Shown here piece by piece: positions 6,980 through 12,106 of a stretch of 12,940 bases of DNA. Under the pieces are notes generated by a model that worked only from the letters and a program-made list of their open reading frames with translations, was not told where the DNA came from and searched no databases. The first letter of the stretch is position 1, and the number at the start of each line of letters is the position of its first letter. The translations under genes were made by a program, and so were the position numbers. This DNA comes from a virus (lineage: Duplodnaviria; Heunggongvirae; Uroviricota; Caudoviricetes), in the IMG/VR virus record IMGVR_UViG_2563366820_000007; one strand, 5' to 3'.

Positions 6980-7337
6980 GATGCACCCCCTGAATGACCT
7001 GATAGCCGCAACAGGTCAGCAATTCGATAAATTCCGGTAATGTGCCGAAACAGCAATCATCACGCAGCTGTTCGCGGGATACCTCGACGCCGTTTTCGTA
7101 GTGACTCACCATACGTCCGGTAAAATGCAGATCATCATCGTGATGGCTCGTTGACGGCTTAATCAGTCGCGCACGTTCTGCCAGTTCCAGCAATGCTTCA
7201 ACACTTCCGGCAATTGCACCATCCGGCAGGTGGTAATTACGCACTATGCGCCCATTCTCCACATTGACCAGTAGCTGCCCGGTAAATTTCTCGTCAAACT
7301 GAATGCTGTTAAGGTCAGAAATTGACAGGTTATGCAT
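6972..7337 (-). CDS. hypothetical protein, 121 aa, two tandem FTG modules
   Basis: ATG at 7335-7337 with AGGGGGTAAG upstream. Two internal repeats: FTGQLLVNVENGRIV...SVEALLELAERARLIKP and FTGRMVSHYENGVEV...LPEFIELLTCCGYQV. Overlaps the upstream stop (ATGCATAA). Confidence 0.55.
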   Translation of the reverse strand: MHNLSISDLNSIQFDEKFTGQLLVNVENGRIVRNYHLPDGAIAGSVEALLELAERARLIKPSTSHHDDDLHFTGRMVSHYENGVEVSREQLRDDCCFGTLPEFIELLTCCGYQVIQGVHHG

Positions 7338-7695
7338 GGCTTACCCCCTGACGAATACGGGCGGCGAATACCATCACACAGCCATCAGGAGATTGCTGGC
7401 GTGCTTCCTGTTCGCTGGTGGCCTCGATGTGAATTACACGCGGTTGTGCCGTACTCAGGGCGATAAAACGCCAGATAAAATTGTTCTCGCATTTCTGAAT
7501 AAACAGCGTGTTTTCTTCGCGCCCTTTCCATGTTGCCGAGATATAGCCCATATCATTGAGCATCTCGCAGGCATCCACCAGCGTATCAGCGGCTACGTGT
7601 ACAGTGTTTTTACCGTCAGCCATGCAATCACGGTGCACCGCCAGGAAGGTGTATATAAATTTAGGGTGAGTTTGGGTATGCTGTGTTCCAGCCAT
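7330..7695 (-). CDS. hypothetical protein, 121 aa, first gene of the replication-side operon
   Basis: The track ORF 7330..8466 is trimmed to the ATG at 7693-7695 (MAGTQHTQ...), which has GAGGT 7 nt upstream. Internal duplication KFIYTFLAVHRD / NFIWRFIALSTAQ. Family not recognised. Confidence 0.55.
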   Translation of the reverse strand: MAGTQHTQTHPKFIYTFLAVHRDCMADGKNTVHVAADTLVDACEMLNDMGYISATWKGREENTLFIQKCENNFIWRFIALSTAQPRVIHIEATSEQEARQQSPDGCVMVFAARIRQGVSHA

Positions 7696-7784
7696 AATCG
7701 TTACCTCGTTTAACGGTTTGGTTAGACGCCCCGCTACTGCCGCAAACAGTTCGGGGCGTTGTCGTTTACATCCTCTTACTGAGG

Positions 7785-7882
7785 TGTGATTTAAATTAAA
7801 TTCAACTGAATCACAGGTCAAGTATTTTTTGTGATTCTTTTTTGTGTATACTGAATCACATCTTTTGTTTAGGAGAATGCAC
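7785..7882 (+). promoter_or_regulatory. divergent promoter/operator region
   Basis: Alternating half-sites TGTGATT (7785, 7830) and AATCACA (7810, 7854) at a spacing of about 22 bp. Extended -10 TGTGTATACT at 7842-7851. AGGAGAA ribosome-binding site at 7871-7877 before the ATG at 7883. Confidence 0.5.
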
Positions 7883-8188
7883 ATGGCAAAAAACACTATC
7901 AACGACAAATCAAAACAGATTTCAATTCGTATCCCACATGATGCTTTTGATGGCATGGAATCCGTAAAACTGGACGGCGAAAGCAACGCCGGATTCATAG
8001 TAACCGCCATGCGTGGTGAGATCGCCCGCCGCCAGGCAGAAGGAAGAGGAGAAAACCCCCTGGTTTCTTCGCTTGATGCACTGGCACAGGTGGAAAAAAT
8101 CGGAGTCAAAGCTGCCGAGGAGATCGGGCAGCTCGTCACCGTCGCGCGTGAAGAACTCCAGCGCCGCAAGGCCAAAGAACAGGAGTAG
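7883..8188 (+). CDS. small putative transcriptional regulator, 101 aa
   Basis: The only convincing plus-strand gene; ATG at 7883 with AGGAGA upstream (the track ORF starts earlier on GTG at 7844). Segment KQISIRIPHDAFDGM could be a ribbon-helix-helix-like beta strand followed by helices (weak). Divergent from the rep operon with operator-like repeats in between. Confidence 0.5.
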   Translation: MAKNTINDKSKQISIRIPHDAFDGMESVKLDGESNAGFIVTAMRGEIARRQAEGRGENPLVSSLDALAQVEKIGVKAAEEIGQLVTVAREELQRRKAKEQE

Positions 8189-8458
8189 TTGATCAGCACC
8201 GGGCGACCAGAAAAAATCGTATCAGTCGCGCCACCAGCAAAATTTTTTGCTTTCCGGACGACGTGGCCAACGACATTTTGCAGCAAAATATTCTGCATTT
8301 CTGGCGTGCTGTAGTAACGGTGATCAGCGCCTTCACTCTGTGCGACCACAACGCTATAATCTGCCTCGTAGACAGTAAGCAATATGGTGCTACAGGTAAT
8401 TCGTTCACAAAGGCGCTCCGGCAACGGGGCGCTTTCTCTTTTTGTAACGGTCAGAGCG

Positions 8459-9259
8459 TTACACATGGCTGTTTTCCTCCATGCGACGGGCTAACCAACG
8501 CTGCGAAAGGCGAATTAATTCAGCTTTCCGCTGGTGGTAGTCCTGGCCTAACTCAATCAGCGTGATATTGCTCTGCTCAAGGTAAGAAAGGTGCTCAAGC
8601 TGCAACGTGCTCATGTGGTCGCGTGGTTCGCCTGTAATGCCGTTCGCCAGTGCCCACTGTTTTGCAGTCATGCCGCCCAGCACGATACGCGCCAGCATAT
8701 TGGCTTCCGTGGTGTAATGGTGCTGTAGAGTGTTTTTACCCAGTTCAGCCCGGTACGCCTCCAGCGCGGCACACATTGGCTTAAAGTAGCTGGCAACTGT
8801 GATACGGGCTTTCAGTTCCCGGCGTAACGCTGCGGAACGTACAGGCGCAACCTTGTGTAGCTCTTCCTCGCATTTGATGAAGTACTGACGAACGGCGCGG
8901 CCCTGTTCGGTGCGTTCGACCATCGCCAGTTCTTTCGCCATGTTGATAGTGCTCAGGTAGTCGTGCTCTACACGTTGGCGAGATTTTGCGCTCACCGGAT
9001 TGGGGGAGGTCAAATTTTCTACGAATTCAAAATCCACGCCCTTTTTAAATCCGTACTCATCAATGCGTCCTTTAATCCAGGTTGTGAAATCACGCTTCAC
9101 ACCCAGCGCCTTATGCAACGCTCTGGCGCTAACAATATTGGTTTCACGCCCGCCAATAACGCCGGAAATAACCGGGATAATTTCGCCGAAATTTTGTTGG
9201 CTCTGGTTTTCAGGCCGAACGAATCCCTGCCCCTGTACGGGCGTTTTTCGCAGTTTCAT
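8459..9259 (-). CDS. phage antirepressor-like protein (AntA/KilA-type), 266 aa
   Basis: N-terminal region NIVSARALHKALGVKRDFTTWIKGRIDEYGFKKGVDFEF resembles antirepressor N-domains; C-terminal half is helical. Domain assignment from memory only. Confidence 0.55.
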   Translation of the reverse strand: MKLRKTPVQGQGFVRPENQSQQNFGEIIPVISGVIGGRETNIVSARALHKALGVKRDFTTWIKGRIDEYGFKKGVDFEFVENLTSPNPVSAKSRQRVEHDYLSTINMAKELAMVERTEQGRAVRQYFIKCEEELHKVAPVRSAALRRELKARITVASYFKPMCAALEAYRAELGKNTLQHHYTTEANMLARIVLGGMTAKQWALANGITGEPRDHMSTLQLEHLSYLEQSNITLIELGQDYHQRKAELIRLSQRWLARRMEENSHV

Positions 9260-9337: not shown

Positions 9338-9535
9338 TCAGGTAGCTGTTCCGCGTGATTCCGCAATACGCTGATTAATCCACTCGTCAATTTCACTCTC
9401 AACGAAAGCAATCGCTCGCGAGCCAATTTTAACTGATGCAGGAAATTTACCTTGCCCCATAAGGCGATAAATCCATGCCTTGCTATATCCAGTTCTACGC
9501 TGAACTTCCGTTAAACGAATAAGCGTATTTGACAT
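9338..9535 (-). CDS. alpA: AlpA-family transcriptional regulator / excisionase-like protein, 65 aa
   Basis: LTEVQRRTGYSKAWIYRLMGQGKFPASVKIGSRAIAFVESEIDEWI matches the AlpA (Phage_AlpA) pattern. GAGGT sits 4-5 nt upstream of the ATG. Confidence 0.85.
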   Translation of the reverse strand: MSNTLIRLTEVQRRTGYSKAWIYRLMGQGKFPASVKIGSRAIAFVESEIDEWINQRIAESRGTAT

Positions 9536-9602
9536 ATATTTACCTCATAACGTCTACTCAATTTGACGAGGTAATCATGGCACAGAAATAACGAATATTT
9601 TC

Positions 9603-9753
9603 ATACCCTCATGCCTAATGGTAATCGGGAATATTTTTACCCTAAGGGTAATAGTAAAATTGATGGGAAAGCATACAAAAATACCCTAAGGGTGAGGTCT
9701 GATTACCCTTAGGGTGAGACGCGAACAAAACATGAGATACCACTAGGGTAAGG
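9603..9753. promoter_or_regulatory. cluster of palindromic operator-like sites upstream of alpA
   Basis: TTACCCT-A-AGGGTAA at 9637-9651 (perfect 7-bp arms), TACCCTAAGGGTG at 9682-9694, TTACCCTTAGGGTGA at 9703-9717, and degenerate TACCACTAGGGTAA at 9738-9751 and GCCTAATGGTAA at 9612-9623. Confidence 0.65.
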
Positions 9754-9755
9754 CT

Positions 9756-10526
9756 TCATCGTTTGATAGGACAGGCGACAAGCTCAATAGATGCGGCCTG
9801 TCGGGAGGTAAAACCTCGTTTTTCAAGCTCAGTAGTAATCGCGCCCTGGTTTCCCCTGGTTGCGCGATCATTCTCTGGGTCGTAATTGGCCCACTCTCTG
9901 TTTCTAATATCGATAGCCAGATACAATGGGTCATCATCACGATACGCCCTTAGCAAAATCGGGCGCTCCTTTTCTAACTGATTTACCCGCTCCCTTAACG
10001 ATTCATTTTCTTTTTCCAGCATTGCAATTCGGGATAAAAAATCATCATCTGTACGCAACTCTTTATGTTCAATATTGCTTCCTTGCGCCTCGTTATTTTC
10101 AGAAGAGTCAGCACATTCCAGATTCATTAACCCGTCAAGGATTTCTGGGAAAATTTCGAAAATTTCATTTCTTCTGAATCCCATTGCCTCAAATTCGGCA
10201 TCTTCCCAATAACCAGATACCAGAAAACCACTCTCATCCCTCTCACAAGGTAAACAACCACGCTCCCTAACCGTATCCAGTTTTGCATAAAGAAAGTTAA
10301 AATCAGGTCTCCACTCAAACGGATCCGAAGAATAAAGTTCCACCTCATTTAATGAATTTACTGTGTACAGGGTAATACCTGGATTTACTGTATTTATTCT
10401 CTTGAGTATCCAGGTAATGACTTCTGAAATATTAGCATCAACAACTTTAAATACATCATCAAGAAAATCACGTAAATAAATAAACTCTTTTTTATATTCA
10501 TTTAATTCGGCATGAATATCAACCAT
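9756..10526 (-). CDS. hypothetical protein, 256 aa, orphan cargo between int and alpA
   Basis: The track ORF 9756..10607 is trimmed to the ATG at 10524-10526 (MVDIHAELNEYKKEF...). Central coiled-coil-like segment LSRIAMLEKENESLRERVNQLEKERP. The 5' two-thirds of the gene is AT-rich. No family recognised. Confidence 0.55.
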   Translation of the reverse strand: MVDIHAELNEYKKEFIYLRDFLDDVFKVVDANISEVITWILKRINTVNPGITLYTVNSLNEVELYSSDPFEWRPDFNFLYAKLDTVRERGCLPCERDESGFLVSGYWEDAEFEAMGFRRNEIFEIFPEILDGLMNLECADSSENNEAQGSNIEHKELRTDDDFLSRIAMLEKENESLRERVNQLEKERPILLRAYRDDDPLYLAIDIRNREWANYDPENDRATRGNQGAITTELEKRGFTSRQAASIELVACPIKR

Positions 10527-10653: not shown

Positions 10654-11868
10654 TCACCCGCATTTTCCGAACTCACCATGCACCACATTTCCGCCATGCT
10701 CGAGCGAATCCATATAGTCGGCGTACCACTGGAGCATCTCGCGCCGCCCGTCCAGATATTGCGCATGATTGTACGTGCCACGAATTGAGTTCTTATCAAC
10801 GTGTGCAAGCTGCGTTTCTATCCACGCGGTGTTATAGCCCTGCTCATGCAAAATGGTGCTCATGGTGTGCCGGAATCCATGACCAGTAACGCGCCCGGCA
10901 TAGCCGATACGACGAATGAGCACATTCATCGCCATTTCACTCATTGGCTTACTGTGGTGAATACGACCGGGGAAAATAAACTGATACTGGCCTGTCATGT
11001 TTTTTAACTGCTCCAGTATTTTTATCGCCTGTTCTGGTAATGGCACACAATGCGGACGGCGCATCTTCATTCGTTCTTTAGGCACTTCCCACAAACGATT
11101 ATCAAAATCGATCTCCTGCCATTCTGCCTGCCGTAATTCCCCGGGTCTGACACCTGTCAGAATTAATAGCCGCATTGCCAGTTTGACGATCTGGCTTCCG
11201 GTGTACGTATTAAAAACGCGGAAAAATTCCGGCAGTTCGTCGGCCTTCAAATAGGCGTAATGCTCTTTTTTATGTGGAGCAAATGCGCTCACCAGGTCAG
11301 GGGCTGGATTATATTCGGCGCGTCCGGTGATGATTGCGTACCGGAACACCTCGCCGCATCGCTGGCGAACCTTACGCAATTTTTCAGTCGCACCACGGTC
11401 ATTAAGACGGGAAAGAACCGCCAGCAATTCCATCGGCTTAATTTCTGCGATCGGCCTACCGCCAATGTACGGAAAAACATCTTTTTCAAACGTCTCGATC
11501 ATTTCCTCGGCGTATGACGATGACCACCTGTCGATCCGCTTTTCGTACCATTCGCGAGCAATACCCTCAAAAGTATTGCCAAATTTGCTCGCCTGTTCTC
11601 GCTTTTGGGCTTTTCTGGCCTCACTTGGATTTATACCACCAGCAAGAAGCCTTTTAGCCTCATCCCTTGCCGCCCTGGCATCAGACAGAGACACATCAGG
11701 GTATACCCCCAACGACAACATTTTGGGCTTTCCTGCAAACCTGTAGCGCAGTCGCCACCCTTTCGAACCGTTCGGCTCAATGAGCAACGAAAGCCCGTTA
11801 CCGTCATTGAGTGTATAAGCCTTTTCTTTCGGCTTCGCGCGCCTGATGGCAAGGTCTGAAAGCAGCAT
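10654..11868 (-). CDS. int: P4-family tyrosine integrase, about 405 aa
   Basis: N-terminus MLLSDLAIRRAKPKEKAYTLNDGNGLSLLIEPNGSKGWRLRYRFAGKPK is a typical P4-type integrase arm-binding domain. C-terminus carries HGFRHT and RGTYNHAQY catalytic motifs. Adjacent to a tRNA gene. Start at ATG 11866-11868; an upstream in-frame ATG at 11907 is also possible. Confidence 0.9.
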   Translation of the reverse strand: MLLSDLAIRRAKPKEKAYTLNDGNGLSLLIEPNGSKGWRLRYRFAGKPKMLSLGVYPDVSLSDARAARDEAKRLLAGGINPSEARKAQKREQASKFGNTFEGIAREWYEKRIDRWSSSYAEEMIETFEKDVFPYIGGRPIAEIKPMELLAVLSRLNDRGATEKLRKVRQRCGEVFRYAIITGRAEYNPAPDLVSAFAPHKKEHYAYLKADELPEFFRVFNTYTGSQIVKLAMRLLILTGVRPGELRQAEWQEIDFDNRLWEVPKERMKMRRPHCVPLPEQAIKILEQLKNMTGQYQFIFPGRIHHSKPMSEMAMNVLIRRIGYAGRVTGHGFRHTMSTILHEQGYNTAWIETQLAHVDKNSIRGTYNHAQYLDGRREMLQWYADYMDSLEHGGNVVHGEFGKCG

Positions 11869-11962
11869 GTGTATAGCTCCAAAAAATAAATTTTGTCCTA
11901 TACGCATTACTATACACTTCTGTGTGTAGATTCTGGTAGTTGTGAGTAGACGTTAATAAGCT

Positions 11963-12019
11963 ATGAAAATGGCTGGAAGGCTTGATATTCGTGGGTTTGA
12001 TGGACTTTAGTAGACGTTG
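11963..12019. repeat. direct repeats TGAGTAGACGTT / AGTAGACGTT near attL (candidate arm-type or recombination-directionality-factor binding sites)
   Basis: TGAGTAGACGTT at 11963-11974 and TAGTAGACGTTG at 12008-12019, between the int start and the tRNA 3' end. An exact inverted copy of the 12-mer lies at 9549-9560 in the alpA leader. Confidence 0.5.
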
Positions 12020-12032
12020 AGAAATGTTTGTT

Positions 12033-12106
12033 TGGAGCGGGCGAAGGGAATCGAACCCTCGTATAGAGCTTGGGAAGCTCTCGTTCTACCATTGAACTAC
12101 GCCCGC
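12033..12106 (-). tRNA. glyU: tRNA-Gly (anticodon CCC)
   Basis: The reverse complement reads GCGGGCGTAGTTCAATGGTAGAACGAGAGCTTCCCAAGCTCTATACGAGGGTTCGATTCCCTTCGCCCGCTCCA (74 nt), with cloverleaf arms and anticodon loop TTCCCAA. Matches E. coli glyU as I recall it. Confidence 0.9.

Follow-up and report, generated by a model that had tools for sequence, protein, structure and literature searches.

Which protein reads the palindromes that lie in front of alpA in this island, and does it hold the gene off or help to turn it on? AlpA is the activator of Gram-negative PICIs and activates its own gene (PMC6092414). Without a helper the gene stays off; the helper induces it through a factor yet to be identified (PMC6092414, PMC11773190), and no master repressor has been found in Gram-negative PICIs (PMC6092414, PMC11773190, PMC10111431). 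We analyzed a 12,940-bp stretch of DNA, here called the window, in which an array of palindromes separates alpA from an upstream gene that we call X.

The island and its palindrome array

The predicted genes follow the layout of a Gram-negative PICI-type satellite (an int-alpA-primase island), with an integrase gene beside tRNA-Gly, then a co-directional AlpA-family gene, and a primase/helicase of the island's own. The tRNA-Gly(ccc) gene (12033-12106) is on the attachment-site side of the island and adjoins int. The first island gene encodes a tyrosine integrase (10654..11907, minus strand; PF00589, PF22022, and PF13356) and is followed by an Rfam match to the int-alpA RNA motif RF02996 (10543..10610, minus strand) and by X (9756..10526, minus strand; 256 aa, ATG at 10526), an unannotated ORF between int and alpA. 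A 220-bp spacer runs from the X stop (9756) to the start (9535) of alpA (9338..9535, minus strand; 65 aa; PF05930, E = 2.4e-19), the proposed regulated gene. In the int-to-alpA part of the window, genes are encoded mainly on the minus strand; X lies upstream of alpA and is co-directional with it, and there is no divergent arrangement.

Beyond alpA, the window contains AntA-like, Icd-like, and DUF4222 genes, a YlcI/YnfO-family gene on the plus strand (7883-8188; phrog_6522, E = 2e-57), a gene for a primase/helicase (AAA_25 / phrog_2850; 6463-5051, minus strand), and ProQ/FinO, PerC, and DUF2213 genes downstream of the latter. A 378-aa minus-strand ORF (7330-8466) is probably not a gene as listed; it encloses the YlcI/YnfO-family gene, and its similarity to Icd-like and PHROG families is confined to the C-terminal part. 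Genes for phage tail or lysis functions were not found within the 12.9-kb window, and the far end of the island lies beyond it. Helper-phage induction and packaging have been shown for other islands (PMC6092414, PMC11773190).

An earlier note on this DNA described four to five 15-bp palindromes upstream of alpA, spaced about 22 and 44 bp apart. We searched the whole 12,940-bp window with the pattern TACCCTNAGGGTA, allowing up to 2 mismatches, and found four matches, all within 113 bp and with no copies elsewhere in the window. The matches start at 9638 (0 mismatches), 9682 (1), 9704 (1), and 9738 (2). The number expected by chance is 0.27, and four or more matches occurred in none of 200 dinucleotide-preserving shuffles; the palindromes are a real feature, enriched far above chance. 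A repeat search of the window recovered the same four copies, with start-to-start distances of 44, 22, and 34 bp. Both spacings given earlier are present, and the 34-bp interval had been left out.

The four ACCCT-N-AGGGT palindromes span 9637-9751, all between X and alpA. The distal site 1 (9737..9751; ATACCACTAGGGTAA on the plus strand) begins 5 nt past the X stop codon and is degenerate, with 2 mismatches among the 12 specified bases of the 13-bp core. Site 2 (9703..9717; TTACCCTTAGGGTGA) and site 3 (9681..9695; ATACCCTAAGGGTGA) are 22 bp apart and have perfect ACCCT-N-AGGGT cores. Site 4 (9637..9651; TTACCCTAAGGGTAA) is a perfect 15-bp palindrome, and its centre falls ~109 nt before the alpA ATG, as it does in diverged relatives. 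The count of four palindromes therefore stands, but the fifth is of another form: the promoter-proximal element at 9603..9625 reads TACCCT-N8-ATGGTA (ACCAT-N8-AGGGT on the transcribed strand), with half-sites that are 8 bp apart and not 1. This variant element appears in relatives as ACCCTCATGCCTGAGGGT. Its centre is ~78 nt upstream of the ATG, and no other part of the spacer is as well conserved in relatives.

We carried out a footprint test on eight diverged loci aligned on the alpA start. Pairwise identity among these loci is 66% in site columns versus 37% in non-site spacer columns (p = 2e-9). The site centres keep a constant distance from the alpA ATG (~-109, -152, -174, and -206, with the 8-bp-spaced element at ~-78) and not from the X stop. 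Site spacings cluster at ~22, 33, 43, 55, and 66 bp, which are multiples of ~11 bp and would put the sites on the same side of the helix. The sites are phased and look like those of a dimeric DNA-binding protein, in agreement with the dimeric binder suggested earlier. Where E. coli islands encode an X of ~85% identity, the ACCCT-N-AGGGT copies persist in a spacer that has otherwise diverged. The palindromes are retained in homologous elements; their absence there had been named as a reason to give up the operator reading.

The protein that tracks the sites

According to the earlier note, no cognate regulator is encoded beside the sites, which might be read by a helper-phage or host factor or by the small plus-strand gene at 7883-8188. 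A survey of related loci points instead to the adjacent gene X (10526-9756). We drew 80 alpA loci from IMG/VR and, over 73 distinct related loci, scored the presence of the X C-terminal domain (C-domain) against the presence of at least two sites. Both are present in 37 loci and both are absent from 36, with no mixed cases, a perfect association to which co-inheritance by linkage contributes because the C-domain coding sequence is adjacent to the sites. No association with the sites was found in the 73 distinct loci for the AlpA, Int, AntA-like, Icd-like, or YlcI/YnfO proteins.

The X C-domain is the island-encoded protein part that tracks the operator sequence, and the pairing reaches Aeromonas, where an island contains an X-like C-terminus (hhalign probability 90%, 26% identity), the sites, and a 39%-identical alpA. 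A Raoultella locus also pairs an X-type domain with sites. Members with ~40%-identical C-domains keep the half-site CACCCT, in an everted arrangement. A two-site scan of a genome collection was informative, among the matches listed, for Raoultella, one further enterobacterial locus, and Aeromonas. We also scanned IMG/VR from the side of the sites, requiring two perfect copies, and 35 of the 48 matches are X-alpA islands; the other 13 comprise L279, which has a divergent X-like gene, and records without X or an adjacent alpA. Together, the footprint, the fixed positions, the distant pairing, and the site-first search argue for selection on the sites beyond linkage. Based on these comparisons, we consider it quite probable that the palindromes are docking sites of X, encoded directly upstream. 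Most likely, dimers of X bind there and control the predicted alpA promoter, which has no -35.

X is labelled 'hypothetical protein' by PGAP in relatives, and we found no match to it in Pfam, NCBIfam, PHROG, or PDB. The protein is predicted to consist of a variable N-terminal domain (~1-140), a linker (141-159), a coiled coil (~160-187), and the C-domain (~186-256). The C-domain (9971-9759, minus strand) has ~70 aa and is helical and conserved, with invariant residues; its consensus is ERPILLxKYRDDDPLYLAIxIRNxEWANYDPENDRATRGNQxAIxxELxxRGFxxRQAxSIELVACPIKR. An AlphaFold model of full-length X (mean pLDDT 77) has a folded N-domain, a disordered linker, and a long helix at 160-187, which gives weak bZIP and coiled-coil matches. 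The C-domain has four to five helices in the model and reaches a pLDDT of 84 when modelled alone. An N-proximal motif, YGF (F117 is invariant), is common to otherwise unrelated X N-domains. We rejected the N-terminal domain as the reader: it is unrelated in L046 and nearly absent from 132-153-aa forms of X, and the sites are unchanged.

A reading in which a helper-phage or host protein binds the sites and X is a bystander would fit the induction of alpA by an unidentified helper factor (PMC6092414), but we judge it very improbable. The repeat type varies among the islands of one host species, E. coli, and follows the X class. Homologues of the X domain were found in none of 50,697 phage records and none of 72,556 plasmid records, and the whole spacer, compared by blastn with the 50,697 phages, gave only chance 26-bp matches (E = 0.7) in Vibrio phage rIIA genes. 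The same palindrome, which the earlier note had proposed to seek in resident prophages and other islands, turned up in related islands. The non-island two-site arrays in IMG/VR, on metagenome and isolate-derived contigs, have no alpA nearby, and one of them, L279, has its divergent X-like gene. It is even less probable that the sites are autoregulatory targets of AlpA, integrase arm-type sites, or targets of the YlcI/YnfO-like protein (7883-8188), although AlpA activates its own promoter (PMC6092414) and all three genes are in the same island. Near-identical AlpA proteins are encoded by islands without sites (those of L044, L069, and L072 differ only by S2A and T4S and have an identical HTH), Int is 100% identical in the site-free L044 and L103, and ~2.3 kb separates the palindromes from the attachment site at the tRNA. 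Some site-bearing islands lack the YlcI-like protein, and site-free islands have versions that are 95-99% identical, which speaks against the plus-strand gene as the reader. Islands with an unchanged AlpA HTH region, or an identical C-terminal half, and another X have entirely different repeats. This amounts to a natural swap experiment and makes X the candidate reader.

Exact 15-mer matches in IMG/VR belong to relatives of the island or to unrelated systems. One example of the latter is an XRE gene of a Firmicute phage, flanked by GTTACCCTAAGGGTAAC; in AT-rich phage DNA from an isolate genome (L013 3300-3699 and L018 8100-8560), a small XRE-type HTH gene lies between GTTACCCTAAGGGTAAC and GTTGCCCTGAGGGTAAC. 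L013 and L018 appear to represent an unrelated system with a palindrome of nearly the same sequence. Among the genome-collection matches L127-L246, ACCCT-N-AGGGT pairs 10-34 bp apart are abundant and unrelated to alpA or X; such pairs, dispersed or in tandem, occur in Chloroflexota/Anaerolineales, Roizmanbacteria, and some Bacteroidota MAGs.

The alpA promoter and the predicted action of X

A consensus promoter scan of the spacer found no full sigma-70 -35/-10 promoter. By eye, we predict an extended -10, TGcCATGAT (9574..9582, minus strand), with no recognisable -35. A TG-N-xAxxAT element occurs just ahead of the leader hairpin in most classes of related loci. Counted from the predicted -10, the centre of the variant element would be at ~-46 and the palindromes at ~-77, -121, -143, and -177. 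With the start predicted from TGcCATGAT, a proximal element at ~-46, and no -35, the arrangement might correspond to a class II activator promoter, in which the regulator site is centred at about -41 to -46. A second -10-like hexamer (TATGAA/T) beside the variant element would instead place that element in the promoter spacer.

The alpA leader is predicted to form a hairpin (9540..9574, minus strand) in which the Shine-Dalgarno GAGG (9546-9543) pairs with an upstream CCTC. The Shine-Dalgarno is paired in the minimum-energy fold of 43 of the 44 distinct leaders, which were folded sequence by sequence, a column count on the MAFFT alignment being distorted by misaligned stem classes. These leaders have at least 7 different stem sequences, and the retained pairing indicates compensatory change. 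Most leader classes also conserve the loop motif TAGACGTTA. Because the predicted extended -10 ends at the start of the 5' arm of the hairpin, transcripts started at the promoter would lack the anti-Shine-Dalgarno arm, and read-through transcripts would be untranslatable. IS10 reportedly shields its transposase gene by the same leader logic.

The match to RF02996 scores 48 bits against a gathering score of 35.8 and ends just before the X start codon. The motif is found at the same place in 11 of the 15 relatives scanned, Aeromonas included, and from this position it precedes an X-type gene in such islands, and not alpA itself. RF02996 shares the int-to-alpA interval with the palindromes and is present in the window and in most relatives. 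We rejected the palindromes as part of this motif, which is 800 bp away and upstream of X; an Rfam scan of 9603-9753 gave no match at E values up to 1.

Our working model, held tentatively, is that X on the array holds alpA off and is released by the helper. X would pair up via its coiled coil, and the half-site ACCCT would be read by its helical C-terminal domain. Dimers of X would fill the four phased sites, which lie along the same side of the DNA, and the promoter-proximal variant element, which would abut the -35 position of a weak alpA promoter that has an extended -10 only. The array would keep alpA off during satellite quiescence until a helper-phage signal, probably sensed by the variable X N-domain, lifts it, and AlpA positive feedback would then lock the switch on.

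We prefer repression over activation because the island must be silent, because X is in the int transcription unit, because AlpA already provides positive feedback (PMC6092414), because long phased arrays are typical of repressor complexes, and because the variable N-domain is reminiscent of the part of SaPI Stl that acts as a sensor. This is a preference, and the geometry fits an activator about equally well. Counting against the full model, class-specific sites upstream of the -35 and a promoter without a -35 are the classic activator-dependent layout, and X is co-directional with alpA, unlike the divergent SaPI Stl. PICIs that lack X (EcCIMP1, and EcCICFT073 by inference) are still silent before helper induction, and the X-like gene and sites of L279 are not followed by alpA.

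In an activator role, which is possible but which we think unlikely, X would recruit RNA polymerase to the -35-less alpA promoter from the element at ~-46, with the upstream sites helping, and the helper would switch on the activity or synthesis of X, for example via the N-domain or the int-alpA RNA before the X start. This agrees with the predicted extended -10 without a -35, and with the repeats of every X class, in which the proximal copy abuts the -35 position and none overlaps the -10 or the predicted start. The conserved YGF/F117 motif could contact a conserved partner such as RNA polymerase, and RF02996 is directly ahead of the X start. However, as a member of the int transcription unit, X is expected to be made in quiescence, AlpA autoactivates already (PMC6092414), and arrays of 4-6 phased sites that extend to -177 and touch the X stop are more repressor-like; the position of the promoter is itself a prediction.

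Two further readings concern read-through transcription. The X-bound array may be mainly a roadblock or insulator against int-X read-through into alpA (in L279, into the convergent gene), and not a regulator of initiation at the alpA promoter. The transcribed strand has no predicted intrinsic terminator between X and alpA, the first site is 5-20 nt after the X stop in most loci, and the L279 sites lie between convergent genes without an alpA. We nevertheless regard a roadblock as improbable, since the site positions follow the alpA start and not the X stop, the best-conserved element is the promoter-proximal one, and the hairpin that sequesters the Shine-Dalgarno could already neutralise read-through. 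That the palindromes act as RNA structure in read-through transcripts, and not as DNA sites, seems most improbable. The 171-nt region folds better than shuffles (z = -2.9), but this fold stems from the mutual complementarity of the repeated palindromes, and a single site forms a stem of only 4-5 bp. The central base is free to vary while the half-sites are fixed, the spacing tracks the DNA helical repeat, and no Rfam family covers the region.

Exchangeable cassettes and known switches

In almost all of the 80 IMG/VR alpA loci, int and alpA are separated by an ORF of 130-350 aa. This ORF is mosaic, and its C-terminal class predicts the repeat motif in the spacer (L046-L125). X proteins that end in ...ANKSIKS occur with two copies of ACCGCAATTGCGGT, or in a sub-class with TTGCATGCAA, those that end in ...RIGRRxKK with TGGTGG/CCACC-type inverted repeats, and those that end in ...TKLEP with direct repeats of ACTTCCAAA; the class of the window, ...VACPIKR, has the ACCCT-N-AGGGT palindromes. 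The AlpA proteins of L045, L098, L103, and L107 have 14 differences from that of the window in the first 34 residues and are identical to it in the last 31. The junction inside alpA, where the differences give way to identity, points to recombination of the HTH half with the cassette. By this comparison, the N-terminal HTH half of AlpA has been exchanged along with the upstream X/repeat cassette in the L045-type class.

The domain-plus-sites cassette can exist outside the int-alpA setting. L279 (5476-6350) encodes an X-like protein that ends in ...VACPINRGR, with three to four ACCCT-N-AGGGT sites within 5 nt after it. A Cro-like gene precedes the cassette and a convergent XRE-type gene faces it, in what resembles the immunity region of a prophage, with no alpA.

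X-type regulators appear to be a feature of a subset of PICIs, though a large one. EcCICFT073 has no X, as inferred from gene numbering (PMC6092414). We rejected EcCIMP1 as a model for this island (no gene separates int from alpA there, and the leader differs) and CP4-57 yfjH as a counterpart of X (its strand is opposite to that of alpA, from which it diverges). A literature search on the motif and on a regulator between int and alpA returned nothing that describes X or the palindrome module.

Repression by X would resemble the Stl/Rpr system of SaPIs in several ways. In both cases, a satellite-encoded, putatively DNA-binding protein is encoded beside the switch promoter, several sites occupy the regulatory spacer, and the protein is modular, with X combining a conserved, putative DNA-binding part and a variable part that possibly senses helper proteins; the quiescence imposed by Stl is relieved by the helper. 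However, X has no detectable homology in sequence or fold to Stl, which has an N-terminal HTH of XRE/CI type, whereas the putative DNA-binding domain of X is C-terminal. X is also upstream of alpA and co-directional with it, whereas Stl is divergent from the operon that it controls.

Lambdoid CI/Cro operators likewise have several partly symmetric dimer sites of 15-17 bp with a spacing that allows cooperativity, and, as with OR2 at PRM, one of the sites directly adjoins the -35 of a weak promoter. Such a position means that the same protein could repress or activate. Unlike the lambdoid switch, the X system lacks divergent promoters, an HTH_3 or peptidase S24 repressor, and a link to SOS; its sites reach 170 bp upstream, and its half-site sequence is unrelated. 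Judged by homology and gene arrangement, X belongs to neither the Stl nor the CI family, although the logic appears similar.

The third comparison is with P4. Here alpA is the homologue of vis, the first gene of the main operon, with a promoter that depends on trans-activation. At the P4 promoter P_LL, the activators are Ogr/Delta zinc-finger proteins, which act on a TGT-N12-ACA site, whereas the sites described here are ACCCT-N-AGGGT and track another, satellite-encoded protein. Many relatives of the island have P4-type C4/isrK immunity RNAs, unlike the window, in which we found no match.

With its conserved operator array before alpA in many enterobacterial islands, X is a candidate for the helper-control step, and the int-alpA interval usually holds a mosaic regulator gene that is annotated 'hypothetical'. 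A broader proposal, which we consider doubtful, is that X and its counterparts in other classes act as master regulators through which a large group of Gram-negative satellites senses its helpers, in a role analogous to that of SaPI Stl, and are exchanged as cassettes. If this is true, a cassette would consist of a variable N-terminal sensor for particular helper-phage proteins, a coiled-coil dimeriser, and a C-domain that travels with its own operators, and X alone would set the helper specificity and induction of X-bearing islands. The pairing of C-domain and operator cassette could serve for orthogonal switches in PICI-based tools.

The class is present in 182 of 5,426 complete E. coli genomes (~3%). 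When 10654-12106 of the window is compared with L001, L042, and L045, one and the same X-operator-alpA module is seen with differing integrases and attachment sites. Here and in L043, the attachment site is the tRNA-Gly next to actS, and in BCE049 the module is at the tRNA-Thr next to proA, with an Int of ~66% identity. In L042 and L044, the island adjoins a second integrase and phage structural genes.
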